Source: a virus. Taken from it: a stretch of 64,000 bases of DNA. Where the stretch lies: the IMG/VR virus record IMGVR_UViG_3300045988_087130, positions 25,785-89,784 of that record; one strand, given 5' to 3'. Both the position numbers and the translations under genes were made by a program. This document shows, piece after piece, positions 10,491 to 55,597 of this stretch (position 1 is the stretch's first letter; each line of letters starts with the position of its first letter). A model generated the notes under the pieces. It was not told where the DNA came from. It saw only the letters and a program-made list of their open reading frames with translations, and did no database searches.

Positions 10491-10492
10491 GT

Positions 10493-25805: not shown

Positions 25806-25955
25806 TTATCTTTGATGTTTAACAATTAAATTCCGTGAATAATGGAAAGAAGAAGTAATGTGCAGCAATGTGCCACGATAGCTGGTCGTGCTGACGAGGA
25901 CAGAAGTCCTCCAAAGCAAAACAAACGTTAATGTTTTAAATTAAACGCTAAAGCG

Positions 25956-25987
25956 TTTGCAAGTTAAAGAAAATAGCATTAACTTTG
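25956..25987 (+). promoter_or_regulatory. sigma-A-type promoter (TTTG-N20-TAacTTTG)
   Basis: TTTG 25956, TAacTTTG 25980; begins a roughly 300-nt structured leader. Confidence 0.4.
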
Positions 25988-26289
25988 CAGCCGAAATAAC
26001 AAGGTTGTGAAGTAAGGCGCACGACTGACTGATATTTGAATAATTTTACAAAATAAATATTTTCATTTGCTCCAAGCGTGGAGCATCGTCATTCCGTTCA
26101 TCGCCTTACATAAGTGGACGGTTGACACAAGCCCTGTCCGCACTCGTGACTTTAGCGGATGGGGCTTTTCGTTTCCACCACAGCCAAATGTAATTATTAA
26201 CAATTTAAATTTGGAGTTACTATGACAGAAAATGTAAACCGAATGATGGGGAATCCGCCAGTGTTCCCATCGGGTATTGTGAAACTGGT

Positions 26290-27188: not shown

Positions 27189-27220
27189 TTTGGTAGAGTG
27201 GAATATAATAGTTATCTTTG
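27189..27220 (+). promoter_or_regulatory. sigma-A-type promoter (TTTG-N20-TAtcTTTG)
   Basis: TTTG 27189, TAtcTTTG 27213. Confidence 0.45.
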
Positions 27221-27247
27221 TGGTCGAATTTCAAAACTTATAAGGAC

Positions 27248-28144
27248 ATGAAGATATTAGAACCGAGATATGAAATCCTATCCCAAGGTGAGGGCATGGA
27301 TGGAGTTTATAAACAGATAGAGTTGTGCGGTCGCACATGTTATGCGTCAAGTATGAAGATAGATAAAGACAGCGCAAAGCCTTTCGTTGAGCGTATGGTA
27401 AGCAGCAATCATCTTGCCATGTGTGAGCATGGAACAATTTATCTCCATATTGCTTACGATAATGACTTCTTTGTTCCGGAGTCTCTACTGGTCAAACACT
27501 ATCGTGAGAACAAGTATTCCAAGGTGATGCAGATAGGTAACGATTACTATATTACGACCAACTACAGAGTTATAGTAGAGAATGAATGGTTTGATGATTT
27601 GGACTATATCTGCGAGCCTATGGAATGGCATGAGAAGCGAATAACCGTCCGCTTTACAACTCAGATAGCGGTAAGTAGAGAGGCTAACAGACATCGTGTA
27701 GATTCCATAGCGGAACAAAGCACTCGATATTGCAACTATAGCAAGGATAAGTTCGGAGGCGAGATTGCTATCAACAAGCCAAAGTGGGTTAGCGATGATG
27801 ATGCGGTTAATCCATTGTCTTTTGATGGTGGAACATTTGTTGACCTATCAAAGAACATCGGTAGTTATGAGCATTGGAGTCCAGTAGAAAAATGGTGGTT
27901 TGCCAATAGAGTATGCGAAATGATGTATTTGTCTTTGGTCAAGGATGATGGTCTTAAGCCACAGGATGCGAGAACGATACTTCCTCTTGATACCAACACG
28001 GAGTTGATTCATACAGCATTCGTGAGTGATTGGCTTCATTTCTTCGATTTGCGATCAAAAGGAACTACCGGAAAGCCTCATCCAGATATTGAGGTCTTGG
28101 CAACCCCATTGATGAATGAGTTCAAGGAACGAGGTTTGATTTAA
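27248..28144 (+). CDS. thyX: flavin-dependent thymidylate synthase
   Basis: ThyX signature REANRHRVDSIAEQSTRY (RHRx7-8S...RY); first ATG at 27248 (track start 27218 is TTG). Confidence 0.8.
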   Translation: MKILEPRYEILSQGEGMDGVYKQIELCGRTCYASSMKIDKDSAKPFVERMVSSNHLAMCEHGTIYLHIAYDNDFFVPESLLVKHYRENKYSKVMQIGNDYYITTNYRVIVENEWFDDLDYICEPMEWHEKRITVRFTTQIAVSREANRHRVDSIAEQSTRYCNYSKDKFGGEIAINKPKWVSDDDAVNPLSFDGGTFVDLSKNIGSYEHWSPVEKWWFANRVCEMMYLSLVKDDGLKPQDARTILPLDTNTELIHTAFVSDWLHFFDLRSKGTTGKPHPDIEVLATPLMNEFKERGLI

Positions 28145-29382: not shown

Positions 29383-29791
29383 CGATTTCAACGCTGCCGA
29401 TGAATTTGTCGTTGAGGCAATGATGCAAGATGGCAAATTCAAGGTTATCGGCAAGGTTATTATTGATAATAATCTTCTGAATGATGATGATTTGGAAACT
29501 ATCTGGGATTATGCCAACTGGGAGACGAACGGCTATGAAAAGATGGTTGTCTCTAACGGAGTGTACAAAGGCTTGAAAGCATTTAGCGATGGGCGTTTGT
29601 TCTATGTAATTACTGATGATGAGGTTGGAGTGGTAAATGACAATATCATGGTACGTAAGCATTATGATGTCAACAATGGCTATTATATTAAGTCATCAAG
29701 GTTGCACAAGGAACAATCCAGGGACTTATGGTGCTTTGGTAGCCGTGAGACTATTGAGAACGAATATAGGTCAAATAAAAAACTGTTTTAA
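29363..29791 (+). CDS. hypothetical protein
   Basis: 142-aa ORF. Confidence 0.4.
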   Translation: MRPIEISDFNAADEFVVEAMMQDGKFKVIGKVIIDNNLLNDDDLETIWDYANWETNGYEKMVVSNGVYKGLKAFSDGRLFYVITDDEVGVVNDNIMVRKHYDVNNGYYIKSSRLHKEQSRDLWCFGSRETIENEYRSNKKLF

Positions 29792-31026
29792 ATTGAGTAG
29801 TATGATTTCATACAAGTACAAGTTATACCGGACGAAGAAGACGAGGCATTTGGATAAGATGCTCCGAGAGGCTTGCTATGTTTGGAATCATGCGCTTGCC
29901 TTGCAGAAGAGATACTATAAGTTGTATCACAAGTATATTCCTAGATTTATGATGCATCATCATTTTGCTAAACGATATAAGCCAATTTTGCTTAACAGCC
30001 ATACCGTTAGGGAAATCTTGGATAGATTAGATGTAGCTTACAAGCGTTTCTTTAAGCATGATGCAAAGCGTCCACCTAAGTTCAAAAAGATGGTTGAATT
30101 TAGTTCGTTCGTTTTCAAAGATAATGGTTATTCCCTTAGTGGAAACGAGTTTGTGATAAACAAGATAAAGAAGTCCTTCAAGTTCTCTCTGAGCCGTCCT
30201 TACGATGGCAAGGTTAAGAGGGTATCAGTCAAGCGCAACAAGCTGGGCGAGTACTTCATTATCCTTTGCTTGGACAAGCAAGCCGAGCCTTACGGAAAGT
30301 CACACGATGGTGCATCCGTGGGCATCGACTTTGGATTGAAGAAGTACATGACTTTGAGCGATGGTCGTGAGATTGATAATCCTCAGTTCCTTAAAGCTGA
30401 CTTGCAGGAGCTTAGGCGCAGGTCTCGCAACCTCTCGAAGTGCAAGAAGGGCAGCAACAACCGCAAGCGCAAGAAGATGGAATTGGAGCGATTGTATCGG
30501 GATATTGTGAACAAACGTTCCGATTTCCAGTGGAAGCTGGCTCACGAACTTTGCAAGCGTTACGACTTGATTTGCTTGGAGGACTTGAACTTGGAGGTAA
30601 TGGCAAAGCGTTGGGGACGCAAGATGTCTGACTTGGCACATAGCGATTTCGTTGTGAAGTTGGAGCACGTAGCGAAGAAGTATGGCGTTAAGGTTCATAA
30701 GATAGACCGCTTCTTCCCATCGAGCCGCCTTTGCACTTGTGGTTATAAGAACGATAAGCTGTCATTGGGTGATAGGATTTGGACTTGCCCTAGTTGTGGT
30801 GCTGTTCATCCTAGAGACCTCTTCGCAGCTGAGAATATACTTCGGCAGGGCATTGCCGAATTGGGGAGTGGTAGTAAGTCACCCAAGCACTCGCAAGGGC
30901 GCAGCCACGTTAACAACCCAACAATCCCTTGTAAATAGCAATGGAGTGTGCCATGTATGCAATAGACTTAGCTCAACGCAAGCAACTTGAAGGATAAAAA
31001 CAAAATACAAAATTAAGAATAAGCAT
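29780..31026 (+). mobile_element. putative IS1341-like element (TnpB only); ends not defined
   Basis: Single tnpB with an 88-bp 3' flank before the next gene; compositional island. Confidence 0.4.
29802..30938 (+). CDS. tnpB: IS200/IS605-family TnpB (OrfB, IS1341-type), no TnpA partner
   Basis: N-terminal YKYKLYRTKKTRHLDKMLREACYVWNHALAL (OrfB_IS605 N-terminus) and C-terminal zinc ribbon CTCGYKNDKLSLGDRIWTCPSCGAVHPRD; GC-richer than its surroundings. Confidence 0.8.
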   Translation: MISYKYKLYRTKKTRHLDKMLREACYVWNHALALQKRYYKLYHKYIPRFMMHHHFAKRYKPILLNSHTVREILDRLDVAYKRFFKHDAKRPPKFKKMVEFSSFVFKDNGYSLSGNEFVINKIKKSFKFSLSRPYDGKVKRVSVKRNKLGEYFIILCLDKQAEPYGKSHDGASVGIDFGLKKYMTLSDGREIDNPQFLKADLQELRRRSRNLSKCKKGSNNRKRKKMELERLYRDIVNKRSDFQWKLAHELCKRYDLICLEDLNLEVMAKRWGRKMSDLAHSDFVVKLEHVAKKYGVKVHKIDRFFPSSRLCTCGYKNDKLSLGDRIWTCPSCGAVHPRDLFAAENILRQGIAELGSGSKSPKHSQGRSHVNNPTIPCK

Positions 31027-31392: not shown

Positions 31393-31524
31393 ATGACGGT
31401 AGTAGATAGAATTAGAATTACGGCTCAGATTGCAGTATTGAAGGAGATTGCTCTTGACTATAAGGGAAAGACAATAGATAACATCATCCAACAGCTAGAA
31501 GCAAGATTGAGTGTACCGAAATAA
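31393..31524 (+). CDS. hypothetical small protein, paralog of 56564-56704
   Basis: 43 aa found by hand; ...DYKGKTIDNIIQQLEARL closely matches ...DYQGKTIDNIIQQMEARL. Confidence 0.3.
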   Translation: MTVVDRIRITAQIAVLKEIALDYKGKTIDNIIQQLEARLSVPK

Positions 31525-32547: not shown

Positions 32548-33075
32548 ATGGCAAATAGGCAGACGATAAAACCAAAGGTAGTTCCATTTGAGATAGCCAA
32601 ACTTCTGAAGGAGGTTGGCTACGATGAGAAGATAGCCGAATTTTGGGCTTATGCTAGTCCTTGGACAGCAAAGGGTGGCATTCGTAAGGGTGGAAAATAT
32701 AATGAGCATTACGGCAGTTATATCGCTTATTCAAATTCCGAGTGGGAGAAATCCAATATTGAGTTTTCTGCTGCCTTAAAGTTGAATAGTAAGCATCCGG
32801 CAATATCCGCTCCGAACTATGATATGGTGTTAGATTGGCTTTTAGAGCATTTCGGTTACTATATTTGTGTTGCAAATATTTCGAAAGGTAAGTTCTGTTG
32901 GCAAACTACATCATGGTGTGTAGAGGAAGGCTTGTGTCATACGGATGGTAAGGAATATTCCAGTAGATACGAGGCAATGGATGCCGCTTTCAAGAGTATC
33001 TTAAAGGCACGTTTGAAGTATGAAAATGATGAGAAACTGCAAACGTTTCTCAAAAGAATTAAAATGGAAAATTAA
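32548..33075 (+). CDS. hypothetical protein
   Basis: 175-aa ORF. Confidence 0.4.
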   Translation: MANRQTIKPKVVPFEIAKLLKEVGYDEKIAEFWAYASPWTAKGGIRKGGKYNEHYGSYIAYSNSEWEKSNIEFSAALKLNSKHPAISAPNYDMVLDWLLEHFGYYICVANISKGKFCWQTTSWCVEEGLCHTDGKEYSSRYEAMDAAFKSILKARLKYENDEKLQTFLKRIKMEN

Positions 33076-33076
33076 G

Positions 33077-34294
33077 ATGAACAAACAGAAAATGATAGAG
33101 TGGATAGCCACTTGTGATACTGGTATCTCTTCTAAAACCATGTGGAGTGCATTGATGGGGGTAAAGCGAAAGAAAGATTTGAATATTCCTAAAGACAATA
33201 GTGACTTCCGTAGATGCTATGACATGGTAGAATACGGACACGTAACCTTGGATGAGCTACAGGTTGTAAAGAAGCAATATCCTTGGTTTGCTCCTGTTGT
33301 TGACAATTGGAAGGAATTGTCTCTTTTGTTTGAAGAAGAGCTGGACAAACGCTTGTATATGCGTATTCGTCAGCTATGTGAAGAGTCAGACATTATCCGG
33401 TATGAGAAAAGGGGAGAACTTTATTATGAGAGGAATTTTTGGTATAATATCACAATAATCAAATTAAGAATGAAGAAAATTATCTTAATGTTTTGTATTG
33501 CGATACTCGGCATGAGTGCGCTTACAAGTTGTCATTCGGTTTCTCCTGATGCAGACGAAGAAGCCGTAATCGTAAAGAAGCCTTGGTTTATTGGGCATGG
33601 AGGTGTTGAACAGCAAGCAGTGCAGACTGGTCTCACTTGGTGCTGGTGGTCAACGAGTGGTTATTACTTCAAGATTGTTCCAGTCCGTCACGAGATTACC
33701 TTAGATGATTTGTTTAGTGACGATAACACGCCACTTGACTTCCATACTGTAATCATTACTCAGATTGAGCAAGGCAAGTCCCCAATTCTTTTGCAGAATT
33801 ATGGTGAGAAATGGTTTGATACTAATCTCAACAATTATTTCTGCAATCTGGTTCGAGACCATATTTCTCAGCATTCCCCATTTGACTTGATGTCGAATCG
33901 GCAAGTGCTTAATCAGATTGACACCAAGATACGCAAGCAGATGCAGGACTATGTGAACGCTCTATCAAAGAAAAAGCAGATGCCTATCATCATAAAGGAG
34001 GTTATCATTGGTAAAGCTACACCAAACAAGGAACAGCTTAATGAAATGAACCGCACGGCAAAGGTCGTGCAAGCCAAGCAGACACAAGAACGTGAATATG
34101 AAGTGCAGATAGCAAGAGAAAAGGCTGAGCGACAAAAGGCAAAGGCAGATAAGGCATATATGGAAGAAATGAATCTTTCCGCTGGTCAGTTTATCAACCT
34201 TAAGTGGATTGAGACAGTAGCAAATAAGCAAGGAGCAAATATTGATGTTATGGTTGGCCCTGCGGAAAGCATGTGGAATATAAGACGCAATTAA
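33077..34294 (+). CDS. membrane-anchored SPFH/band-7-like domain protein (possibly two fused genes)
   Basis: Continuous frame; internal MKKIILMFCIAILGMSALTSC lipoprotein-type signal at about 33469; the downstream region resembles an SPFH domain followed by a coiled coil. Confidence 0.4.
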   Translation: MNKQKMIEWIATCDTGISSKTMWSALMGVKRKKDLNIPKDNSDFRRCYDMVEYGHVTLDELQVVKKQYPWFAPVVDNWKELSLLFEEELDKRLYMRIRQLCEESDIIRYEKRGELYYERNFWYNITIIKLRMKKIILMFCIAILGMSALTSCHSVSPDADEEAVIVKKPWFIGHGGVEQQAVQTGLTWCWWSTSGYYFKIVPVRHEITLDDLFSDDNTPLDFHTVIITQIEQGKSPILLQNYGEKWFDTNLNNYFCNLVRDHISQHSPFDLMSNRQVLNQIDTKIRKQMQDYVNALSKKKQMPIIIKEVIIGKATPNKEQLNEMNRTAKVVQAKQTQEREYEVQIAREKAERQKAKADKAYMEEMNLSAGQFINLKWIETVANKQGANIDVMVGPAESMWNIRRN

Positions 34295-34671: not shown

Positions 34672-34711
34672 TGTAAAAATCATCAAAAGAGTTTAAATAA
34701 ACACTAAAACA

Positions 34712-34743
34712 TTTGCAAGTGTGAAATAAAATGCTTATCTTTG
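34712..34743 (+). promoter_or_regulatory. sigma-A-type promoter of the tRNA operon (TTTG-N20-TAtcTTTG)
   Basis: TTTG 34712, TAtcTTTG 34736; about 140-nt leader before tRNA-Glu. Confidence 0.45.
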
Positions 34744-34888
34744 CATCGTGTTTGAAACAGATGGCCTTCAATGAGGTTTCTTCTACCATAATAAGTCAAG
34801 ACTTAGGAGTTTACGGCATGGTTTCCAGGTTATCCTGCCCAGCTAGACTATAACAAGGCAACTCTAATTAGGGTGAGAATCCCTAGAT

Positions 34889-34961
34889 GCTGCATTAGAC
34901 AAGTGGTTAAGTCGCCAGTTTTTCACGCTGGTATTCAAAGGTTCGAATCCTTTATGCAGTA
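34889..34961 (+). tRNA. tRNA-Glu (anticodon TTC)
   Basis: Hand-folded: acceptor GCTGCAT/ATGCAGT, anticodon stem CCAGT/GCTGG with loop TTTTCAC, T-arm AAAGG-TTCGAAT-CCTTT. Confidence 0.6.
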
Positions 34962-34967
34962 CAAATT

Positions 34968-35038
34968 TGCCCTATGGTGTAATGGCAACACTACAGGTTT
35001 TGGTTCTGTCATTAGTGGTTCGAATCCGCTTGGGGCAA
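34968..35038 (+). tRNA. tRNA-Gln (anticodon TTG)
   Basis: Acceptor TGCCCTA/TGGGGCA, anticodon stem ACAGG/TCTGT with loop TTTTGGT, T-loop TTCGAAT. Confidence 0.55.
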
Positions 35039-35069
35039 CAAGGTGATATTTGATATGTATTCCACAAAT

Positions 35070-35154
35070 GGTGCAATATTCAAGCGGCTAAAGAAGACTG
35101 ACTGTAAATCAGTTCCCATTGCGGGTTCGGTGAGTTCGAATCTCTCTTGCACCA
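35070..35154 (+). tRNA. tRNA-Tyr (anticodon GTA), type II with long variable arm
   Basis: Acceptor GGTGCAA/TTGCACC; D-loop AGCGGCTAAA; anticodon loop CTGTAAA; variable arm CCC-ATTGC-GGG; T-loop TTCGAAT; 85 nt. Confidence 0.65.
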
Positions 35155-35178
35155 CAAGAGTAACTTTGTCAGATTACG

Positions 35179-35250
35179 GGGAATGTAGCTCAGAAGTAGA
35201 GCACTTGGTTCGTAACCAAGGGGGCATTGGTGCAACTCCAATCATTCCTT
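35179..35250 (+). tRNA. tRNA-Thr (anticodon CGT)
   Basis: Acceptor GGGAATG/CATTCCT, D-arm GCTC-AGAAGTA-GAGC, anticodon stem CTTGG/CCAAG with loop TTCGTAA; unusual T-loop TGCAACT. Confidence 0.5.
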
Positions 35251-35253
35251 TAC

Positions 35254-35325
35254 GCTTTCGTAGCTCAGTGGCAGAGCATAGGATTTTTAATCCTAGGGTC
35301 GAAGGTTCGAATCCTTCCGTTGGCA
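35254..35325 (+). tRNA. tRNA-Lys (anticodon TTT)
   Basis: D-arm TAGCTCAGTGGCAGAGC, anticodon stem TAGGA/TCCTA with loop TTTTTAA, T-arm GAAGG-TTCGAAT-CCTTC; acceptor stem has two internal mismatches, so ends are uncertain. Confidence 0.5.
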
Positions 35326-35498
35326 CAATGATACACAAGAAGAGAGCCGTGATGTTTGTTCTGTTGGAATCTCGGACATCTGTCAACGGATAACGTAGGA
35401 AGCAGATGGGGCGAATAAAGTTGTGAATAAGCTTATGAACTAGGGAAGCAAGCGGAATGGCCTCTTTTTTGTGCTTCATTTGATGGTTTAACGAAAAA

Positions 35499-35813: not shown

Positions 35814-35846
35814 AGGCTTTGGTGTGTGAACATCGAAGCCTTTTTA
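35814..35846 (+). terminator. rho-independent terminator
   Basis: AGGCTT-TGGTGTGTGAACATCG-AAGCCT followed by TTTT. Confidence 0.55.
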
Positions 35847-35909
35847 TATATAATAAGGTAAAATAAAAGCTGAAATGTTAACAAGACCCATATATCAGTT
35901 ACGAAAGGT

Positions 35910-35975
35910 TAAAATACAAAAGAAAAACATTAAATAACTTGCATATTTCAAAACTTATTCGTATCTTTGCATCGT
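35910..35975 (+). repeat. promoter cassette, partial copy E
   Basis: AAAATACAAAAGAAAAACATTAAATAACTTGCATATTTC..TAtcTTTGCATCG shared with copies A-D; the leader is diverged. Confidence 0.55.
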
Positions 35976-36025
35976 CAATCAAGATAAGTTGGTTGATTTG
36001 CCGAGTGACAAGTTTCACTCAATAA

Positions 36026-36068
36026 GGTGAGAGCGACACCAAGGGGTAAGACCCGAAACAACTAGCAC
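36026..36068 (+). promoter_or_regulatory. variant GGTGAGAGCGACACC...AAACAACTAGCAC element
   Basis: Motif variant with an inserted GCG, 9 nt upstream of ATG 36077. Confidence 0.35.
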
Positions 36069-36076
36069 AATTGATT

Positions 36077-37006
36077 ATGTCTAAGCAGACTGGTTTTTCA
36101 TTCGCAAGTTCAAAGAAGTCATTAATCGAGACTATTGACGAAATCAAGAAGTCAAAGATGCCTCGCAACGAAAAGATTGTTGCATTGAAGGCTTGCGGTC
36201 TTCGTGAGAAAGAAATCTCCGATATGTTGAAGGTTTGTGTACCAAGCGGTTCAACTTCAACGAGATTCGTTTATACATTCGGTGTTGAGATTGAATGTGT
36301 TCATGCCGAGCGCAATGCCTTGATAGAGGCGGGTCGTCAGAATGGTGTTGATATTCATTCTGAGGGCTATAACCACACCGACAACAAGAGTTATTTCAAG
36401 ATTGTTAGTGATTCTTCAGTTGGTGGTGATGTTGACCCTAACGAGGTTGTAAGTCCGGTATTGAATGGCAATACAAATGGTATGGCAACTTTGAAGAAGG
36501 CTATCAAGTCTTTGGATGCCGTAGGTGCAAGAGTAAATTCTACTTGTGGCCTTCACGTTCATATCGGTGCAGCAAAGTTGACAGGTGAGCAATATGTTAA
36601 CGTCTTCAAGAATTATCAGAAGCTTGAAAGATTGATTGATAGCTTCATGGCTCCTTCAAGAAGAGGCAATTGCCGTTGGGCAGCCAGCTTGCTTGACAAA
36701 GATTTCTCTAATTGCCGTGGCAATTACGATATTAGACGTAATGTATTTCATGGAGACAGATATTACAAGGTCAATGCAGAGAGTTTTGCACGTCACAAGA
36801 CTATCGAGTTTCGCCAGCATCAAGGTTCAACTAATTACAAGAAGATTGAAATGTGGGTTAAGTTCTGCGCAAAGCTTGTCGGTTGGTCTCGTAACAATGT
36901 CTTCACTAGTGAGGTTATGAACATCGAAGATATACCTTTCTTGAATAAAGAAGAAAAGGCTTTCTTCCAGAGCCGTAAGGATGCATTTGCAGCCAATAAC
37001 GACTAA
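36077..37006 (+). CDS. putative amidoligase (Amidoligase_2 family, glutamine-synthetase-like fold)
   Basis: FGVEIEC (E-x-E metal site) and CGLHVHIGA motifs typical of the phage Amidoligase_2 family; first ATG at 36077. Confidence 0.55.
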   Translation: MSKQTGFSFASSKKSLIETIDEIKKSKMPRNEKIVALKACGLREKEISDMLKVCVPSGSTSTRFVYTFGVEIECVHAERNALIEAGRQNGVDIHSEGYNHTDNKSYFKIVSDSSVGGDVDPNEVVSPVLNGNTNGMATLKKAIKSLDAVGARVNSTCGLHVHIGAAKLTGEQYVNVFKNYQKLERLIDSFMAPSRRGNCRWAASLLDKDFSNCRGNYDIRRNVFHGDRYYKVNAESFARHKTIEFRQHQGSTNYKKIEMWVKFCAKLVGWSRNNVFTSEVMNIEDIPFLNKEEKAFFQSRKDAFAANND

Positions 37007-37080
37007 TTGATGTAGTCCTAGGGTAAAACCCCTAGGACACAAAAATCAAGTATTACTAAGAAAAAAGAAAGGGTAAAGAT

Positions 37081-37614
37081 ATGTGTGTTATTATTGTATG
37101 TCCGAAAGGTACTACTTTGCCATCCGTTGATGAGCTGAAGGCAGCGTATATGAGAAATCCCGATGGTTGCGGATTTGTGAGTGAGTCTGACCATTATAAG
37201 AGCTTGCATTTCTCTACATTTATACGTAGATTGATGAAGCGAGATATAAATGAGAATGTAATCATACATTTTAGATTTGCTACTCATGGTTCTGTCTGTG
37301 TCAAGAATTGTCATCCGTTCTACAAGGCTGGTTATTGGTTCGCCCATAATGGAGTGCTCCCGATCTGCTCCGAGCATGATAAAACGGATAGTCAGATTTG
37401 CTTTGAACGTTTCATTTATCCTACTATCAAGAAATATGGTTGGGGTTCTGATGAACATATGAAAGAAATGAATAAATGGACAGCTCATGGTTCTAAGTTT
37501 GCAATGTTGCATAATGGTGAGATTTTGAAGTCCGGTAAATTCATAGAGCGTGATGGACGGTTCTATTCTAATTTGAATCATTTGGGTTATATGAGAAATG
37601 TCATAAACTTTTAG
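37081..37614 (+). CDS. class-II (Ntn) glutamine amidotransferase domain protein
   Basis: N-terminal MC (Cys2 nucleophile) and HFRFATHGSVCVKNCHPF matching the GlmS-type H.R.AT.G....N.HPF motif. Confidence 0.55.
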   Translation: MCVIIVCPKGTTLPSVDELKAAYMRNPDGCGFVSESDHYKSLHFSTFIRRLMKRDINENVIIHFRFATHGSVCVKNCHPFYKAGYWFAHNGVLPICSEHDKTDSQICFERFIYPTIKKYGWGSDEHMKEMNKWTAHGSKFAMLHNGEILKSGKFIERDGRFYSNLNHLGYMRNVINF

Positions 37615-37839
37615 ATATTTTAATGTTTAGGTTCTTTTTAATTCGACAAGCGTCAGATGTCCGTGAGGATATTTGGCGTTTTTTTTTGTTATATAAGGCG
37701 TTTTATTTTGTGTTGCAATTAATTATTCATTTTTGTGATAAAATAGCCTTAAATCGCTTATAAATACCCTTATTACTCACTTTTAACCAAAAGTGAGATA
37801 CCTGCAAACGCTTTAATGCATTAATTGCTTTTTTCGTAT

Positions 37840-44265: not shown

Positions 44266-45295
44266 ATGTCTTGCTTCTGTTGCGGAGGTGGCAGTTCCTT
44301 TGGTTATAAGTTAGCTGGCTACGATGTTGTAGCCTGTAACGAGATAGACCCAAAGGTTATGAAGATGTACTTGAAGAATCACGATGTCAAGTATTCTTTC
44401 AATTGTGATATTCGTGAGCTGATTGCCAATATCAATATAGGGGGGGCATATTATGAAAGAAGAGTTGCATAATCTGGATATATTGGATGCTAGTTTCCCA
44501 TGTTCGGTATTCAGTATTGCAGGTGACCGCCAAAAGGCTTGGGGAAAGGAAAAAGTATTCCGAGAAGGTCAGAAAGCACAAAGGCTTGACGATTTGGCTT
44601 TTTACTCAATCGCCCTCGCTCAAGAACTACAACCAAAGGTAGTGGTTTTTGAGAATGTCCAAGGTTTGTTGCAAGGTGAAGCTATCGAGTACGTGAAAGA
44701 GATTTACAGGCAGATGGATAATGCCGGATATATCTTGCAGCATTGGTTGCTTAATGCACGTAATATGGGTGTTCCTCAGAATCGACCTAGGGTGTTCTTT
44801 CTAGGATTACGCAAAGACCTTTGCAAGCCGTTTATGGTTCAGAAGGATTTGTTCGAGCGAGTGCCTAAGATAGATATGGACTTCAACGAGAAAGAAATTG
44901 TCTTGGATGAGTTTTCGGACTATAGTGGAAGACAGATTCCAAAAGGAGTGATGAAGTATTGGGAGCATAGAAACGAGAAAGACAATTCTATCGGTGATAT
45001 TGTCAAACGGATGGATAATCGTCTTTCTATGTTCAATAATATGTTTCTTAAAAAGGATAAAGTATGCAATACTATATCAGCAATGGAAGATAGGCTTGTG
45101 TATTTTGATAATCCAAGTTATATTTCAGCGCATGATACGATTTTAGCATCAACATTCCCGATGGATTATGACTTTAATGGCATGAAACCTTGGTTTGCTT
45201 GCGGAATGTGTGTTCCTCCAGTTATGATGGCTAATGTAGCTACGAGAATCTGGGATTGTTGGTTGTCAAAGATTAAAAAGGAGGAATGCGCATGA
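44266..45295 (+). CDS. DNA (cytosine-5)-methyltransferase interrupted by a frameshift at a G7 tract
   Basis: Motif I FCCGGGSS in ORF 44188-44472; motifs IV FPCSVFSIAG, VI ENVQGLL, VIII QNRPRVFF in ORF 44453-45295; the frames join if the G run 44440-44446 has 6 or 9 G. Confidence 0.7.
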
Positions 45296-46029
45296 TAACA
45301 GCAAGTATGAATTCGGGTGAGATGCGTAGGGTACGAAACTTAGATGAAGCTAGAATCTATGAGTTTCAGATGCGAAAAGCTAATGAGCTTAAACGTGAAA
45401 TGAGAAAGCAGAGTGTAAGACAGATAACCAAGACATACGAATTGGTTACACGGAATGCCGATTATTTCATCGTTGTAGGTGTAAAGCATGGAGGTGTCTT
45501 TGTCTCAGGTGTATTCATTTATCTGAAGGAAACTAACGAGTATATTCCTATGAGCAGAAATGAGGGGTATAGCGAGGATTGTTTTGCTATGAGCGTTCAT
45601 TTTCTGAAGAGATATGCAGAAAGGTATTTGAAAAAGGATTTGCCGATAGCAAAGATATTACAAAAGATATATACATCGTTTACAGGTGCGGTTCAGCTTT
45701 ATAGTGACGACAAGACAAAAAGGGTGGTGTTTGCTATTCCGGAAGGGCTTATACTCACAGAATACGAGCAAGAAAAGCGTATCATCCACTACAAAACCTT
45801 TGTAAGCATGGATATGCTAAAGAAGACACAAATGCAAAGTTACGAGAAGATTAGTGCATTTCTAATGGAATCATGTCAGCAAATAGCTATGGCAAGAGAA
45901 GCAGGAAATGACGAAAAGCTGGGCGTTGTGTACAGAAGGTTTTATGATGATATTGATTTGATAGATACAAAGGAGGCGCAAGCCATATATTCAAGTTTCT
46001 TCGAAAAAGGAGGTAACAATGAAAGATAA
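45286..46029 (+). CDS. hypothetical protein overlapping the C5-MTase stop (candidate restriction partner, unproven)
   Basis: 247-aa ORF starting 10 nt inside the MTase gene end; no recognisable motif. Confidence 0.4.
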   Translation: MRMITASMNSGEMRRVRNLDEARIYEFQMRKANELKREMRKQSVRQITKTYELVTRNADYFIVVGVKHGGVFVSGVFIYLKETNEYIPMSRNEGYSEDCFAMSVHFLKRYAERYLKKDLPIAKILQKIYTSFTGAVQLYSDDKTKRVVFAIPEGLILTEYEQEKRIIHYKTFVSMDMLKKTQMQSYEKISAFLMESCQQIAMAREAGNDEKLGVVYRRFYDDIDLIDTKEAQAIYSSFFEKGGNNER

Positions 46030-46522
46030 ATGTATAACAAGGTTTCTAGGTGATATTAAGCCTATAGAGAATTACGAAAGGTATTATGTTAGCAAGCTGG
46101 GACATGTCTTTACTATTGGGAGAACGTCTCAATTAAAGGAAATCGCACCTTGCAAGACACCAAAAGGTTATTTGAAGGTATGGCTTTACAAGAACGGAAA
46201 GCGAAAGATGTTCTATGTTCATCGTTTGGTAGCGCAGGCATTCTTGGAGAATCCAGATGCGTTGCCGATGGTGAATCATAAGGATTTCGACAAGACGAAT
46301 AACGATGTAGATAACTTGGAGTATTGTACCGCAAGATACAATGTGATTTATTCTGCTATAGCAAAGAAAACCTCTTCCGAATACTTGGGTGTGACTTGGA
46401 ATAAGAGTGTAAGAAAATGGCAAGCTCAGTACCAGGTAGGTAAGAAGAAAACTTATATCGGATGCTTTGGTACGCAAGAAGAGGCTCACGAAGCTTATGT
46501 TAACGCTATAAAAGAGATTTGA
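46019..46522 (+). CDS. HNH homing endonuclease (HNH_3) with AP2 DNA-binding domain
   Basis: VNHKDFDKTNNDVDNLEY (H-x-D...NN...NLE HNH_3 core) and YLGVTWNKSVRKWQAQYQVGKKKTYIGCFGTQEEAHEAY (AP2). Confidence 0.65.
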   Translation: MKDKCITRFLGDIKPIENYERYYVSKLGHVFTIGRTSQLKEIAPCKTPKGYLKVWLYKNGKRKMFYVHRLVAQAFLENPDALPMVNHKDFDKTNNDVDNLEYCTARYNVIYSAIAKKTSSEYLGVTWNKSVRKWQAQYQVGKKKTYIGCFGTQEEAHEAYVNAIKEI

Positions 46523-46523
46523 C

Positions 46524-47237
46524 ATGCTTAAATTTGATAGAATATACAATTCCGACTGTATAGAAGGAATGAAGCAAATAGGGAGTGGGGATGTCAATTT
46601 AATTGTTACTGACCCACCATATTGTATCTCCTATAAGACCGGATGGAGAGCAGACGACCATCGTTTTTCGAAGGAAATACTCAATGACGATAATGAGCAA
46701 TTGATTATTGATTATATGAGCGAATGCTACCGGATATTGAAGGATGATAGTGCCGCTTACGTCTTTTGTTCAGCTAAGACCTTGGACTTTTTTATGCAAC
46801 AAGCTAGGAACGCAGGGTTTACCATTAAGAATGTGCTCATTTGGCGAAAGAACAACCATACGGCTGGAGATTTAGAGGCGCAATATGGGCAATGTTACGA
46901 GCCAATCCTGTACTTGAATAAAGGCAGACGAACCATAAACGGAAAGCGTTTGGAGGACGTATGGGACTTTGATAGAGTTCCATCTGATAAATTGGTACAT
47001 CAGAATGAGAAACCAATTCCCTTGCTTATGCAATGCATCTTGAAATCATCGGACGAAGGAGATTTGGTATTTGATGGTTTTATGGGTTCAGCAAGTACTG
47101 CTCTGGCTTGTATGCGTACAAACAGGAATTTCCTTGGCTTTGAGTTAGACGGGGAATATTTCAAGGTAGCACAAAAAAGAATCAAAGAAGAAATGTTTAA
47201 TCAAAAAGATATGTTTGGATATGCTGGAGATAGATAA
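46524..47237 (+). CDS. beta-class N6-adenine/N4-cytosine DNA methyltransferase
   Basis: N-terminal catalytic TDPPY, C-terminal SAM site FDGFMGSASTALAC. Confidence 0.75.
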   Translation: MLKFDRIYNSDCIEGMKQIGSGDVNLIVTDPPYCISYKTGWRADDHRFSKEILNDDNEQLIIDYMSECYRILKDDSAAYVFCSAKTLDFFMQQARNAGFTIKNVLIWRKNNHTAGDLEAQYGQCYEPILYLNKGRRTINGKRLEDVWDFDRVPSDKLVHQNEKPIPLLMQCILKSSDEGDLVFDGFMGSASTALACMRTNRNFLGFELDGEYFKVAQKRIKEEMFNQKDMFGYAGDR

Positions 47238-47967
47238 GATTTATCAAGTTGATTGTCTGGATGGTATGAGCAAGATTGATGACAAGTCCGTCTCGCTTAT
47301 ACTCACAGACCCTCCATATGAAATTTCAAGGGATTCCAATTATGCAAAGTCCGCTCCTACTGGTAAAGATACTGATAGATTCCGCATATCTATCGACTTT
47401 GGAGACTGGGATAAACAGGAAGCATTTGATATAGGCTCTATGATAAAAGAATCCTACAGGTGCTTGAAAGATGGTGGATATATAGTTTGTTTCTATGATT
47501 TGTGGAAGATTGGGGTCGTAAAGGATGCGATGATTAATGTCGGATTTAAACAAATTAGATTTATAGAATGGATAAAAACAAATCCTGTTCCAATAAATAG
47601 TAAGACAAACTATCTCACAAACGCAAGAGAGGTCGCTGTGTGTGGGGTGAAAGGTAAAAATCCTATCTTTAAAAGCGAATATGACAATGGAGTATATAGC
47701 TTTCCAATCTGTCGTGATAAGGGGAGATTTCATCCTACCCAGAAGCCTGTTAGTCTTTTCAGAAGCATTATAAACAAGCATTCCTGCAAAGGAGATATTG
47801 TACTAGATTGCTGTATAGGTAGTGGAACTACGGCTATTGCGTGTATTCAAGAAAATCGTAATTTTATTGGTTTTGAAACTAATAGAGAGTTTTACGACAA
47901 AGCAAACGAGAGAATAGAAAATGAATTAATGATAAAGCAAGATAGTTTATTTAGTAATGAAAGTTAG
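47215..47967 (+). CDS. beta-class N6-adenine/N4-cytosine DNA methyltransferase
   Basis: TDPPY motif; C-terminal LDCCIGSGTTAIAC. Confidence 0.75.
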   Translation: MDMLEIDKIYQVDCLDGMSKIDDKSVSLILTDPPYEISRDSNYAKSAPTGKDTDRFRISIDFGDWDKQEAFDIGSMIKESYRCLKDGGYIVCFYDLWKIGVVKDAMINVGFKQIRFIEWIKTNPVPINSKTNYLTNAREVAVCGVKGKNPIFKSEYDNGVYSFPICRDKGRFHPTQKPVSLFRSIINKHSCKGDIVLDCCIGSGTTAIACIQENRNFIGFETNREFYDKANERIENELMIKQDSLFSNES

Positions 47968-48692
47968 TGGGTGATATGATGGAGCTAAATAGAATTTATC
48001 AAGGTGATTGCCGAAAGCTTCTAAAGCAGCTAGACGATGAATGTATAGACCTAGTATGCTCTGATGTTGCTTATCCGGTACAAGCTAGAGGTGGGCGCAG
48101 TAGTATGAGTGGATATTGGACGGATTCTCAAACTAGAAAAGGTAAGATATTCAAGAGTAATGACATAGATATTTCGGAGTATATCAACGAACTATATCGA
48201 GTACTAAAGGATAAGACTCATTGCTATCTTATGTGTAACGACTATAATCTGATGCACTTTCTAAATGAGATAGGACGGAGTGAGTTTCACTTCACAAAGT
48301 GTTTAATATGGGATAAATGCACTAAGGTGTGTGGAACGTATTATATGAACCAAAAAGAGTATATCATTATGCTTCGTAAGGGAGGTGGAAAGCCAATTAA
48401 TGAGTTTGGCACATCTGACATTCTGAGTGTTCCTATTCCAACCAACAAACGCAGGGATAAAGAAGGATTGATCAATCAGACCGAAAAACCAGTTAAGTTG
48501 ATGGAGATTCTAATCAGAAACTCAACAAATGTAGGTGATGTTGTTCTTGACCCATTTATGGGGAGTGGCACAACAGCAAGGGCTTGCGTTAATCTTGAAA
48601 GAAAGTATATAGGCTTCGAAATAGACCAGCGGCAAGTAGATTTTTCCAATAACGAATTAAAGAGCATGAGTAGGCAATTAAGTCTGTTTTAA
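47967..48692 (+). CDS. beta-class DNA methyltransferase homolog with atypical catalytic motif SDVAY
   Basis: Aligns with its neighbours (CSDVAY in place of TDPPY); C-terminal LDPFMGSGTTARAC is intact. Confidence 0.6.
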   Translation: MGDMMELNRIYQGDCRKLLKQLDDECIDLVCSDVAYPVQARGGRSSMSGYWTDSQTRKGKIFKSNDIDISEYINELYRVLKDKTHCYLMCNDYNLMHFLNEIGRSEFHFTKCLIWDKCTKVCGTYYMNQKEYIIMLRKGGGKPINEFGTSDILSVPIPTNKRRDKEGLINQTEKPVKLMEILIRNSTNVGDVVLDPFMGSGTTARACVNLERKYIGFEIDQRQVDFSNNELKSMSRQLSLF

Positions 48693-48696
48693 AACA

Positions 48697-48921
48697 ATGG
48701 ATATGAGTATGGTTATTCAATGTAACACAGTTGTAAGAAATGGGAATAAAGAGATAACGGATGCTCTTATAAAAGCCATTAAGGATGAAGCCTCGAAGCG
48801 TGGGTTGGTACGTGATGAATTGGTTGAATATTGCAACCAATTGTTAAGGAAAGGCGAAATCAAGGCTTGTATTAAGAATTTGTTTTATAATTTCAAACGT
48901 TATTTTTGGAGGTATTATTGA
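48697..48921 (+). CDS. hypothetical protein
   Basis: 74-aa ORF. Confidence 0.35.
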   Translation: MDMSMVIQCNTVVRNGNKEITDALIKAIKDEASKRGLVRDELVEYCNQLLRKGEIKACIKNLFYNFKRYFWRYY

Positions 48922-48922
48922 T

Positions 48923-49552
48923 ATGAGAAGAAGAAAGTTGAACAAGTCTCCAGTGTTAGGATTCTGCGGATTTGTTATCGGTTACGAGTGCAAGGAAAAG
49001 GGAATAAAGCTGATGGAGTGCGATAAGGCGCAAGCAGATGCAATCATAGTTCCTCATCACTTTTCACACAAGGTAACGAAGAATAGTTGCTTGAATCTTT
49101 TGGTATTGTATAAGGATAAGATAAGGGGTGCAATGCAAATAGGGTATGGAATCCGACCGCACATCAAGACTGAAAAGGGCGAAGTGTTGGATTACCATCA
49201 AGTGAGGGAATTTGACAGAATGTGGTTGTCTGATGATATGCCAAAGTTTAGTGAGACGATTTGCCTATCTCTTTTGCATAAGTATATTAGGGCAACACAT
49301 AAGGAAATCAAGTACCTTATATCTTATGCCGATACGTCCATAGGTAACAAGGGAACTATATATAAAGCAGCAAACTATGAGCATATTGATACCATTAAGG
49401 CAGATTTCTATGTGTTACCAAGTGGTGAGCGTGTGCATCCGGTTACTATGTGGCATCGGCACAAGACAAGAGCATGGGAGGTTCTAACGGAACTATACCC
49501 AGGAATAAAAAAGGCAGAAGGGTTTCAACTTAAATTTCTAAAGAAGTTATGA
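48923..49552 (+). CDS. hypothetical protein embedded in the methyltransferase array
   Basis: 209 aa; no recognised motif; sits between MTase paralogs. Confidence 0.4.
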   Translation: MRRRKLNKSPVLGFCGFVIGYECKEKGIKLMECDKAQADAIIVPHHFSHKVTKNSCLNLLVLYKDKIRGAMQIGYGIRPHIKTEKGEVLDYHQVREFDRMWLSDDMPKFSETICLSLLHKYIRATHKEIKYLISYADTSIGNKGTIYKAANYEHIDTIKADFYVLPSGERVHPVTMWHRHKTRAWEVLTELYPGIKKAEGFQLKFLKKL

Positions 49553-49764
49553 AGAAAAGAAATAAATATATTCCTTGTCATTTGCATCCAGATTCTGAGC
49601 ATTGGGTTAGAAAGGGGGACTCTTGGAAAGCAAAGATTGCTTACGAATCCGAGGAGGATGCTTGGGAGTTTCTGAACCAGCGATCCGAACTGAAGGCGAT
49701 TGGGTATGTGGCGTATCAATGTAAGACTTGCCATTTCTGGCACGTGGGGAGAAAACTATCGTGA
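49549..49764 (+). CDS. small zinc-ribbon-like protein
   Basis: CHLH...H and a C-terminal CKTCHFWH Cys/His pair. Confidence 0.35.
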   Translation: MKKRNKYIPCHLHPDSEHWVRKGDSWKAKIAYESEEDAWEFLNQRSELKAIGYVAYQCKTCHFWHVGRKLS

Positions 49765-49798
49765 AATGGTTTAACTGATAGAAATAGATTTATAGAAG

Positions 49799-50569
49799 AT
49801 GGAATTAAATAAGATATATAATGAGGATTGTCTAGTGGGAATGAAACAGATTCCGGACGCAAGTGTGGATTGTATTATCTGCGATTTGCCGTATGGTGCT
49901 CTCAATAAAAAGAGTGAGGGCGGTGGCTGGGATAGCATTATTCCGTTTGAACCATTGTGGAAGGAATATCTGCGCATAACCAAACCAAATGCAGCCATTA
50001 TTCTTTTCTGTCAAGGTATGTTTACCGCACAGCTTATGATGTCGCAGCCGAAACTCTGGAAATATAATCTTATTTGGAGCAAGCAGCGGGTAACAGGCTT
50101 TTTGAATGCCAACAAGATGCCTCTGCGCTCACATGAGGATATTGCAGTATTCTATCGGAAACAACCTATCTACAATCCTCAGATGGTAAAATGTGCGCCA
50201 CATCAAAGGAATCATCGAAGGGGCGATGGCTCTCATAGTTTGAAGCGAGGTTGTTATGGCGATCATAAAGAAGTGCCTACTATCATATCAGATGAGAAAT
50301 TCCCAAAGAGCATTATCTGCTTCGACAAAGAACATTCTGCCAACACCTTCCACCCCACTCAAAAGCCAGTCGCTCTTATTCAGTACCTCATCCGTACCTA
50401 CTCCAACGAGGGCGACACCATCTTAGACAACTGCATGGGCAGCGGTACTACCGCTATCGCAGCCATCCGTGAAAAGCGAAATTTCATCGGGTTCGAGTTA
50501 AATAAAGAATATTACGACAAGGCTTGTAAGCGCATTAAGTTAGAAATTATGCAACCCAGCCTATTCTAA
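49799..50569 (+). CDS. beta-class N6-adenine/N4-cytosine DNA methyltransferase
   Basis: CDLPY catalytic motif; C-terminal LDNCMGSGTTAIAA. Confidence 0.75.
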   Translation: MELNKIYNEDCLVGMKQIPDASVDCIICDLPYGALNKKSEGGGWDSIIPFEPLWKEYLRITKPNAAIILFCQGMFTAQLMMSQPKLWKYNLIWSKQRVTGFLNANKMPLRSHEDIAVFYRKQPIYNPQMVKCAPHQRNHRRGDGSHSLKRGCYGDHKEVPTIISDEKFPKSIICFDKEHSANTFHPTQKPVALIQYLIRTYSNEGDTILDNCMGSGTTAIAAIREKRNFIGFELNKEYYDKACKRIKLEIMQPSLF

Positions 50570-54746: not shown

Positions 54747-54908
54747 ATGTATTTTGAATATAGAATAGTCAAGATTGAGAAAGGTCTTTTTCTTATAGAG
54801 TATAAGACCGCTCCTTATGGAGTTTGGCATGAAGTAAAAAACAAACAGTTCAAGACTAAGCCAAAGGCAGAAGCTTGGGCTAGAAAGAACTTAGAAATGG
54901 AGGTGTAG
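54747..54908 (+). CDS. hypothetical small protein
   Basis: 53-aa ORF found by hand; C-terminal ...EMEV plus the junction repeats the end of 9936-10490. Confidence 0.25.
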   Translation: MYFEYRIVKIEKGLFLIEYKTAPYGVWHEVKNKQFKTKPKAEAWARKNLEMEV

Positions 54909-54910
54909 GT

Positions 54911-55135
54911 ATGAGCAAATATAGCTTGGATATAACGTCAAAGGATAAGCCCTTTATAAACATAGAAGTTGAAGACGATAGAGTTCTTCTCGGTGCTTAC
55001 GAAGGTGGGAAGATAGCAAGAAGATTGTTCTTTATCAACAAAGAACAGTTGGGACTTCTCATAGATGGTTTAAGGGCTGCAAACATCCTTATTCACAATG
55101 AGGTGGATTTAAGTCAGTTTATAATACATAAATAG
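54911..55135 (+). CDS. hypothetical protein (full-length copy of truncated 10493-10609)
   Basis: 74 aa MSKYSLDITSKDKPFINIEVEDDRVLLGAYEGGKIARR... Confidence 0.4.
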   Translation: MSKYSLDITSKDKPFINIEVEDDRVLLGAYEGGKIARRLFFINKEQLGLLIDGLRAANILIHNEVDLSQFIIHK

Positions 55136-55520: not shown

Positions 55521-55552
55521 TTTGGCTATATGAAAATATTGTTTTACCTTTG
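55521..55552 (+). promoter_or_regulatory. sigma-A-type promoter (TTTG-N20-TAccTTTG)
   Basis: TTTG 55521, TAccTTTG 55545; the track ORF start 55550 lies inside the promoter, so ATG 55598 is taken as the start. Confidence 0.45.
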
Positions 55553-55597
55553 CACAATAAAAAATGGCATATATGGAATAATAAAAACAATCAACTT

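Follow-up and report, generated by a model that had tools for sequence, protein, structure and literature searches.

What reaction do two adjacent enzyme genes with their own transcription signals carry out for a phage of the human gut? The region 35960-37690 of the window (the whole stretch of DNA analyzed here, 64,000 nucleotides long) is a self-contained two-gene unit of a gut Prevotella/Segatella-type phage, in which a ligase gene is followed by the gene for a small cysteine hydrolase. The unit and its signals are laid out as follows.

35814..35841, + strand: terminator-like hairpin and T run, a 12-pair stem and then TTTTTATATAT
35901..35985, + strand: copy of a Bacteroidota-type promoter cassette of ~85 nt (repeat families D1 and D4)
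35962-35969, + strand: -7 element TATCTTTG, inside this copy of the promoter cassette
36026..36040, + strand: 5'-leader hairpin GGTGAGAGCGACACC, a variant of the window's conserved leader motif
36077..37006, + strand: Amidoligase_2 carboxylate-amine ligase, 309 aa
37015..37038, + strand: intercistronic stem-loop GTCCTAGGG-TAAAAC-CCCTAGGAC, no T tract after it
37081..37614, + strand: minimal stand-alone class-II (Ntn) GATase-like cysteine amidohydrolase, 177 aa
37648..37687, + strand: terminator-like hairpin (37648-37681) running into a T9 run (37679-37687)

The two genes have their own promoter cassette and leader hairpin, and terminators flank them on both sides. The hairpin at 35814-35841 closes an upstream 92-aa ORF and gives the cassette its 5' insulation, and the terminator at 37648-37687 ends the unit ahead of the head genes. 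A promoter at 35962, a variant of the leader motif, and a closing T9 run had all been read from the sequence in a first-pass annotation, and each of them was found in place. The ~85-nt cassette that holds the -7 element is present in 8-9 copies within the window (family D1, n = 8; family D4, n = 9), including one upstream of the tRNA array (34675-34759) and one upstream of a Rha-family regulator gene (25919-26003). The leader hairpin is one of seven sites of the motif GGTGAG(N2-6)CACC in the window, all on the + strand, where chance would give 0.1. Its loop exceeds those of the other six by 2 nt. Among known RNA families, the sole match between 35700 and 37900 was the sRNA BTnc201 at the terminator, which falls far short of the family threshold (E = 0.32).

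The ligase gene starts at the ATG at 36077, while the mechanical ORF begins at the TTG at 36071. Its product carries the blocks FGVEIEC and CGLHVHIGA and matches PF12224 (Amidoligase_2) with an E value of 4.4e-33 and a score of 115.6 bits (cut-off, 22), residues 66-268 being aligned with positions 3-245 of the 245-position profile; it also matches phrog_2443, "amidoligase enzyme" (E = 2e-53). This profile match, the predicted fold, and the literature agree on the Amidoligase_2 assignment that had been made from the two blocks. Judging from the predicted structure, residues 66-268 form a catalytic domain of the glutamine-synthetase/glutamate-cysteine-ligase (GS/GCL) fold. Within it lie the motifs E71-x-E73, H160-x-H162, and E244-x-R246, whose six named residues are invariant among 44 close sequences and 11 very diverse phage sequences (a single alignment of these 11 was too divergent to seed a scan, and two narrower alignments were used). 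By analogy with GCL and GS, we take the ExE, HxH, and ExR residues to bind metal and ATP. The identity to characterized GS-fold ligases is only 9-17%, so that the carboxylate that is activated need not be glutamate. No biochemical study of any Amidoligase_2 member was found in the literature, and sequence comparison gave no solved structure of the family. Ahead of the catalytic domain, residues 14-52 form a small three-helix N-terminal domain, for which neither a profile search against PDB sequences nor Pfam scans of 24 members returned a significant family match.

The product of 37081-37614 begins with MCVII and contains HFRFATHGSVCVKNCHPF. Its match to PF13230 (GATase_4) has an E value of 8e-7, scores 28.7 bits (cut-off, 23), and is confined to residues 47-95, and PF13522 gave 22.9 bits, under the cut-off of 27; the family claim first made from Cys2 and a GlmS-type motif is borne out by the former profile. 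Six residues (M1, C2, R65, N90, G91, and D103) are invariant across 46 homologs. From the alignments, Cys2 is the predicted nucleophile, and Arg65, Asn90-Gly91, and Asp103 are the putative residues for glutamine or γ-glutamyl recognition and for the oxyanion: R65 aligns with R73 of GlmS and N90-G91 with N98-G99, and D103, from a TD(S) motif aligned to 1te5, would be the equivalent of the α-amino-binding Asp123 of GlmS. A profile of the 46 homologs matches GlmS (1xff) at an E value of 8e-6, and the best match of the hydrolase among sequences of solved structures is 1te5, a YafJ-like protein of the GATase_4 type. The predicted fold has the four layers of Ntn hydrolases, with GlmS as its top structural match, and it is as near to the hydrolase EgtC as to GlmS.

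In the characterized class-II amidotransferases, the GAT domain is fused to a synthase domain, and in GlmS, PurF, AsnB, and GltB this domain of ~200-240 aa is fused to a synthase domain with an ammonia channel; EgtC, by contrast, is a stand-alone hydrolase. The window hydrolase shares with GlmS, PurF, AsnB, and GltB the N-terminal Cys nucleophile, the Arg/Asn-Gly/Asp glutamine site, and the Ntn fold, but differs from them as a stand-alone domain of 177 aa, which ends directly after the core sheet. No fusion to a synthase domain was seen among the 120 listed of 657 close matches, nor in any of the 148 cluster representatives listed (clusters at 50% identity); the longer relatives whose tails were inspected have low-complexity acidic tails. 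Neither the hydrolase nor the ligase has a signal peptide or a membrane segment in its sequence.

The order of the two genes is strictly kept. The ligase gene precedes the GAT-II gene in all 94 ligase-anchored and all 80 capsid-anchored Bacteroidales phage loci, and both genes are under purifying selection. In the lineage of the window, the pair always lies directly upstream of a scaffold-like gene, a 150-aa gene, and the major capsid gene, but the Bacteroidales pairs occupy at least three contexts: upstream of scaffold and capsid genes, directly after cro beside a CI-type repressor, and after NinG. Because the order is fixed across at least three genomic contexts, the pair behaves as a mobile accessory cassette that stands outside the capsid module. 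A link to capsid assembly was considered and rejected, since ligases ~50-60% identical to that of the window are found in prophages after cro beside the repressor (L188) or after NinG (L190), the solo ligase of Porphyromonas phages shares an accessory island with HicAB and candidate anti-CRISPR genes, and in other phyla the pair sits among early or replication genes. Phages bearing the pair are also found as Prevotella and Phocaeicola prophages, and a contig binned into a Segatella copri MAG is near-identical (99%) to the phage of the window. In human-gut data this phage is abundant, hundreds of IMG/VR stretches matching it. The defense-system models of PADLOC-DB v2 gave no match at E ≤ 0.01 for the ligase, the hydrolase, or the upstream 92-aa ORF.

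In place of translational coupling, a structurally conserved hairpin separates the two genes. The stem-loop of the window begins 8 nt past the ligase stop codon, and a hairpin was found at the same intercistronic position in all eight lineages folded (-14 to -20 kcal/mol; z of -3.5 to -7), with stem sequences unrelated between the lineages. Probably this hairpin uncouples or tunes the expression of the two genes. In a ninth lineage (L104), an intercistronic hairpin was noticed by eye.

Does the small protein, then, feed ammonia to the ligase? This would be glutamine-dependent amidation, in which the GAT-II protein hydrolyzes glutamine and passes ammonia to the ligase, which amidates a carboxylate, e.g., the Glu or DAP of the peptidoglycan stem peptide or another envelope component, so that the surface of the lysogen is altered and superinfection blocked. 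Such an amidation and superinfection idea is said to have been put forward for phiEco32 by Iyer et al. in 2009, and the superinfection-exclusion proposal is echoed in the secondary literature. The full set of glutaminase residues is invariant in the hydrolase, so that ammonia donation is compatible with its sequence, and the GlmS match, the strict adjacency of the ligase and GAT-II genes (94 of 94 loci), and the moron-like insulation with a host-type promoter in phages found as Prevotella and Phocaeicola prophages all speak for it. However, no GAT-II-ligase fusion was seen among the listed homologs, a conserved hairpin lies where coupling would be expected, and both proteins are without export or membrane signals. 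The known peptidoglycan amidation pair MurT/GatD resembles the window pair as a two-gene operon of a ligase and a glutaminase, and it does amidate a carboxylate. MurT is built on the Mur-ligase fold, GatD belongs to the class-I triad GATases, and neither fold matches the window proteins.

The partners of distant ligases also bear on this question. Across 55 distant ligase lineages (clusters at 60% identity or less), the neighbors within 5 kb on each side were a GGACT/AIG2 gene alone in 15 and a GAT-II gene alone in 14, while 5 lineages had both partners and 21 had none, so that 34 of 55 have one or both; these counts are rough, as they were made with self-built HMMs. Among annotated phages, those of Bacillus and Geobacillus have the ligase with a γ-glutamylcyclotransferase, and those of Arthrobacter have the gene order GGACT, ligase, GAT-II. 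In phage C75C1, four small ORFs downstream of the ligase, a GAT-II domain is fused to a GGACT domain. This fusion was seen in C75C1 only and was rejected as a common architecture, and a GGACT domain was absent from all 148 representative hydrolase relatives checked. The co-occurrence of GAT-II and GGACT in 5 lineages, and their fusion in one phage, suggest that the two do not simply stand in for each other. A cyclotransferase is unable to supply ammonia but is able to cleave γ-glutamyl amides. The many lineages that lack any GAT-II, or have only a γ-glutamylcyclotransferase, indicate that the ligase is independent of a glutaminase subunit, and we consider amidation by ammonia transfer rather unlikely. 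The second gene had been called an amidotransferase in the first-pass annotation. Its family placement stands, but the role of ammonia donor that this name implies is not the best reading, in view of the stand-alone domain, the predicted fold that is as near to EgtC as to GlmS, and the distant ligases with a cyclotransferase or no partner.

From the partner pattern in the 55 lineages and the GAT-II/GGACT fusion, we infer instead that the pair makes and cleaves a γ-glutamyl amide, the small protein not being an ammonia-donating subunit. We give a probability of roughly 45% to the reading that temperate Bacteroidales phages carry the unit as an autonomous accessory cassette, with a host-type promoter and a terminator, which encodes such a γ-glutamyl-amide "make and cleave" enzyme pair. 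As suggested by the fold and the conserved residues, the ligase would use ATP and Mg2+ to convert a carboxylate to an acyl-phosphate, most likely the γ-carboxylate of a glutamate, free or at the end of a peptide, and would join the activated carboxylate to an amine other than ammonia. The candidate amines are small metabolites (a polyamine or an amino acid) and macromolecular amino groups. The hydrolase would be processed to expose Cys as the N-terminal nucleophile, bind a free α-amino and α-carboxylate moiety, as in L-glutamine or γ-glutamyl-X, and cleave the γ-amide via a γ-glutamyl thioester; it may thus act as a deglutamylase of the EgtC/PuuD type that frees or recycles the amine, rather than as an ammonia-channeling subunit.

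There are precedents for such a division of labor. In the ergothioneine (EgtA/EgtC) and putrescine (PuuA/PuuD) pathways, a GS-fold ligase works with a glutamine-amidotransferase-like hydrolase. Unlike the window unit, these pathways have intervening enzymes (EgtB in the former, PuuB and PuuC in the latter), PuuD is a class-I GATase while the window hydrolase is of class II, and at 13-17% identity to the window proteins there is no evidence-backed common substrate. Several points speak against the make-and-cleave reading: the 21 lineages with neither partner, the GAT-II and GGACT genes that occur together, the low identity to characterized ligases, and the glutaminase residues of the hydrolase. 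In addition, if one bond is formed by the ligase and broken by the hydrolase with no enzyme in between, the result would be a futile cycle, unless time or target keeps the two apart or the host contributes enzymes. As the unit has two genes only, either the intermediate chemistry would be done by the host, or the two enzymes would be a writer and an eraser.

The latter option can be taken further. The cassette may serve reversible γ-glutamylation of a macromolecule, the conserved three-helix N-terminal domain of the ligase recruiting the target, as a mobile conflict or lysogenic-conversion module of temperate gut Bacteroidales phages; the target would be a lysine or N-terminus of a host or phage protein, or an amino group of a nucleic acid. 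We regard this extension as doubtful. Improbable to a similar degree is a pupylation-like tagging, in which the GAT-II-like thiol enzyme would deamidate or trim a peptide or protein ending in glutamine or glutamate, the ligase would couple the resulting carboxylate to a host or phage protein, at a lysine or an N-terminal amine, and the mark would also be reversed by GGACT or GAT-II. Beside the pair there is no conserved gene for a small tag, the 57-aa ORF that separates the two genes in L003-L005 being absent from the window, and the N-terminal domain of the ligase matches no known family. The invariant Asp103 favors a substrate with a free α-amino group, which the C-terminal residue of a protein does not have.

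A role in modifying nucleic acids had also been suggested for the pair, and the surroundings in the window gave reason to consider it.

27218-28144: ThyX
48923-49552: Mom-family gene (PF25680, E = 3e-35)
60240-61442: RtcB

The ThyX, the RtcB, and the seven DNA methyltransferase genes noted earlier were all confirmed in the window. The Mom-family gene at 48923-49552 had been overlooked. In a hypermodification of DNA or RNA bases, the pair would decorate a modified base that bears an amine or a carboxyl group; the candidates are a hypermodified thymidine, the product of Mom, and a base of the neighboring phage tRNAs. Genes of the Pfam amidoligase and glutamine-amidotransferase families do occur within some viral thymidine-hypermodification clusters (Lee et al., 2021; PMC8989533). 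Genes for DNA modification abound in the window, the methyltransferases and Mom among them, and an array of five tRNAs lies directly upstream of the unit. The N-terminal domains of Arthrobacter-phage ligases also gave weak, sub-threshold HTH matches (HTH_18, E = 0.0065; HTH_23, E = 0.04), but the window ligase's own domain gave no HTH match, and a DNA-binding HTH is at most a candidate reading for it. Of a thymidine-hypermodification cluster, ThyX alone was found: a Pfam scan of ~40 ORFs, mostly + strand ORFs of at least 150 aa, gave no dUMP hydroxymethylase, aGPT-Pplase, or TET/JBP, and no + strand ORF of at least 60 aa in the window has a Walker-A motif, which indicates that a 5-HMUDK-type kinase is missing from these ORFs too. 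The earlier view that the window does not support a thymidine-hypermodification role agrees with these scans. A link of the pair to Mom was likewise rejected, because the taxa with Mom and those with the ligase do not overlap, this phage excepted, and the cassette moves among contexts that have no modification genes. With no tie to nucleic-acid modification in the window or in the relatives, the suggestion is not supported, and we judge base hypermodification very unlikely. The more cautious statement of the first-pass annotation, that such pairs have no assigned substrate, agrees with the literature.

How does the pair relate to what has been described before? It is of a known kind, first described in 2009 (PF12224, PHROG 2443). 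Amidoligase_2 neighborhoods of phages and prophages, with a GAT-II "thiol peptidase" or an AIG2/GGACT cyclotransferase, were reportedly set out in that year by Iyer, Abhiman, Burroughs, and Aravind. The window pair has the same ligase family, partner family, adjacency, and phage setting as these cassettes, and the alternation of partners is reproduced here. It differs from them as a minimal two-gene form with an unusually short GAT-II of 177 aa, carried by temperate Bacteroidales (Segatella/Prevotella) phages and equipped with its own promoter cassette, leader and intercistronic hairpins, and terminators. The phiEco32-type clusters (Pseudomonas K4/TC6, Klebsiella KpnP_VR7901, and Rhizobium RHph_I3_11) also hold Amidoligase_2 and class-II GATase genes in one early-gene cluster. 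These clusters of proteobacterial podophages are larger, however, with 4-5 enzymes that include a GAT-II of 420 aa (GATase_6/7), a second ligase (PF14395, COOH-NH2_lig), and an R2K/RimK-like ATP-grasp enzyme, and their Amidoligase_2 proteins are ~25% identical to the window ligase and lack its N-terminal domain.

Amidoligase_2 genes were seen in phages of Arthrobacter, Mycobacterium, Bacillus, Pseudomonas, Klebsiella, and OM43, in crAss-like phages, and in the giant virus Catovirus. Together with GAT-II or γ-glutamylcyclotransferase partners, they are scattered over very many phages, and since 2009 they have been the subject of computational prediction only. The finding reported here adds a member and its regulatory anatomy to this known family, not a new function. 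The window pair is the simplest version, as it consists of two genes, is insulated, and is strictly conserved. A macromolecular writer and eraser, if true, would mean that phages encode a kind of covalent modification not described before. If the pair does make and cleave a γ-glutamyl amide, the search for the substrate would narrow to amines, and a clean in-vitro test would become possible.

The ligase (Amidoligase_2, PF12224; 309 aa) and the small class-II (Ntn) glutamine-amidotransferase-like protein GAT-II (GATase_4, PF13230; 177 aa) are encoded in a single insulated transcription unit on the + strand. The promoter, the leader, the two genes and the T9 run were re-read, and everything that the first-pass annotation had stated of the sequence in this region was borne out:

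35814-35841, +, terminator-like hairpin closing the preceding 92-aa ORF
35901-35985, +, copy of the ~85-nt, Bacteroidota-type promoter cassette, with TATCTTTG at 35962-35969
36026-36040, +, 5' leader hairpin GGTGAGAGCGACACC, of the type GGTGAG(N2-6)CACC
36077-37006, +, ligase gene
37015-37038, +, intercistronic stem-loop
37081-37614, +, GAT-II gene
37648-37681, +, hairpin 3' of both genes, running into a T9 tract (37679-37687)

The promoter cassette occurs in 8-9 copies in the window, this one included, and further copies precede the tRNA array (copy at 34675-34759) and the gene of a Rha-family regulator. The leader hairpin has seven sites in the window, all on the + strand (2130, 2572, 7753, 25779, 28744, 36026, and 51602), against a chance expectation of 0.1; most lie a few tens of nucleotides 3' of a cassette copy, AAAAACTG usually comes next, and the hairpin may affect how the phage transcripts are translated or how stable they are. 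No Rfam family was found in the cassette region. The intercistronic stem-loop, which overlaps the ligase stop codon or lies just 3' of it, was present in all eight lineages folded (-14 to -20 kcal/mol; z-scores -3.5 to -7), with unrelated stem sequences, and was recognized by eye in a ninth. In the related loci L003 (11000-11173), L004, and L005, whose ligases are ~50% identical, a 57-aa ORF that is absent from the window follows a GC-rich hairpin between the two genes.

Ligase residues E71, E73, H160, H162, E244, and R246 are invariant across all phage versions compared (Bacteroidales, Porphyromonas, Arthrobacter, Bacillus, Geobacillus, Faecalibacterium, and proteobacterial). Residues 14-52 form an additional three-helix domain, which matched no family and is kept in the Bacteroidales, Porphyromonas, and Arthrobacter versions. 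Purifying selection acts on both genes (31-39 natural alleles; pN/pS 0.17 in the ligase, 0.07 in GAT-II), and neither protein matched the PADLOC defence models.

All 94 ligase-anchored loci, at identities down to 39%, have the ligase followed by GAT-II, as do all 80 capsid-anchored loci. In the window's lineage, the pair lies upstream of head genes; in a second lineage, of prophages, it directly follows a cro-like gene, divergent from a repressor of the CI/HTH_3 type, and in a third it comes after NinG. Because the surroundings differ between lineages, the pair is a mobile two-gene cassette. These changing surroundings also rule out a capsid-module gene. Several lineages also have a WYL_2 (PF10902) gene close to the cassette, as in the loci L188 (11412-11756, directly 3' of GAT-II), L001 (18752-19090), and L003 (17072-17449). 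A 99% identical ligase was found on a contig binned with a Segatella copri MAG, relatives occur as prophages in Prevotella and Phocaeicola genomes, and the matching IMG/VR stretches number in the hundreds.

All genes are on the + strand in the window, a siphovirus-like genome that also encodes ThyX and RNase H, as well as:

16100-22228, +, tape-measure protein gene
29637-30938, +, TnpB-like ORF (IS605 OrfB, Cas12f1-like TNB domain, and HTH)
34889-35326, +, five tRNA genes (Glu-UUC, Gln-UUG, Tyr-GUA, Thr-CGU, and Lys-UUU)
48923-49552, +, Mom-family DNA-modification gene (PF25680, E 3e-35)
60240-61442, +, RtcB

The tRNA array is directly 5' of the pair, and scaffold-like, decoration-like, and major-capsid genes are directly 3'. 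Together with RtcB, the array may point to a counter-measure against anticodon nucleases by which tRNAs are repaired or replaced. The Mom-family gene, which the first-pass list had missed, is inside an island (44453-50569) with an HNH endonuclease and five of the seven DNA methyltransferases that the window encodes, and the phage DNA may carry Mom-type adenine modification besides methylation. The mechanical ORF 33020-34294 is probably two joined genes; the true SPFH lipoprotein start is likely near 33497, given the internal lipoprotein-type signal MKKIILMFCIAILGMSALTSC ahead of the SPFH/Band-7 domain. ORF 55550-56128 has a SocA/Panacea antitoxin domain (PF13274, E 8e-18). A 141-nt direct repeat (family D6; 10470-10610 and 54888-55028) is 94% identical over a distance of 44 kb, and a second repeat pair (31403-31509 and 56568-56674) is 71% identical.

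In annotated Geobacillus GR1 and Bacillus phages, the ligase is accompanied by a gamma-glutamylcyclotransferase (GGACT) without GAT-II; the order is GGACT, ligase, GAT-II in the Arthrobacter phages Laroye and Ottawa. The cluster of proteobacterial podophages is larger and includes a 420-aa GAT-II along with an R2K ATP-grasp and a COOH-NH2 ligase of the phiEco32 type, and the ligase is solo in Porphyromonas phages. Among 124 further viral contigs, whose ligases fall into 55 clusters at a cut-off of at most 60% identity, a rough count with self-built HMMs within 5 kb gave 15 clusters with GGACT alone, 14 with GAT-II alone, 5 with both, and 21 with neither. Phage C75C1 (L316, OQ984151.1) encodes a 298-aa fusion (3001-3897), annotated solely as a gamma-glutamyl cyclotransferase, of an N-terminal GATase_4-like and a C-terminal GGACT domain (PF06094, E 3e-21), four small ORFs 3' of its Amidoligase_2 gene. 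A GGACT domain was present in 0 of the 148 small GAT-II representatives listed (50%-identity clusters), and the longer relatives whose tails were inspected had acidic low-complexity ones.

Glutamine-dependent amidation of a carboxylate, e.g., envelope modification for superinfection exclusion, is an idea attributed to Iyer et al. (2009) and repeated in later papers, and we consider it unlikely. Because the alternative partners GGACT and GAT-II have a gamma-glutamyl amide as their common target, ammonia cannot come from a cyclotransferase, and GAT-II is often missing beside the ligase, we tentatively favour, at a probability of about 0.45, a ligase that forms gamma-glutamyl amides paired with an Ntn hydrolase specific for the gamma-glutamyl group, with an amine as the substrate of the two. 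This preference also draws on the structural neighbours, where the characterised ligases activate the gamma-carboxylate of glutamate, and on the characterised class-II amidotransferases, which are fused to synthase domains, EgtC being a stand-alone hydrolase. The ligase would form a gamma-glutamyl amide on an amine, on which the small GAT-II would act as hydrolase, following the logic of EgtA/EgtC and PuuA/PuuD cut down to two genes. A ligase that tags a peptide or protein in the manner of Pup seems to us somewhat more doubtful than carboxylate amidation. The first-pass annotation had read the genes as a candidate amidotransferase-containing modification pair, for small molecules or nucleic acids; a nucleic-acid role is without support in this analysis, and decoration of bases is very improbable, since the window's + strand ORFs contain no Walker-A kinase (60 aa or more) and, among those of at least 150 aa that were scanned, no aGPT-Pplase, TET/JBP, or dUMP hydroxymethylase, the last already remarked on as unseen, and, this phage apart, phages with Mom and phages with the ligase are separate sets.

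The pair is already known as a kind, which the Pfam text for PF12224 captures. It was reportedly described computationally in 2009, phage genome papers have noted it repeatedly with its function given as unknown, and no experimental characterisation was found in the searchable literature. Our analysis adds a Bacteroidales version that is minimal and strictly conserved, its regulatory anatomy (promoter cassette, leader hairpin, covarying intercistronic hairpin, and terminators), its mobile-cassette behaviour, and the partner alternation with counts, plus one fusion; the alternation and the fusion move the mechanistic interpretation away from "amidotransferase" and closer to a turnover of gamma-glutamyl amides.
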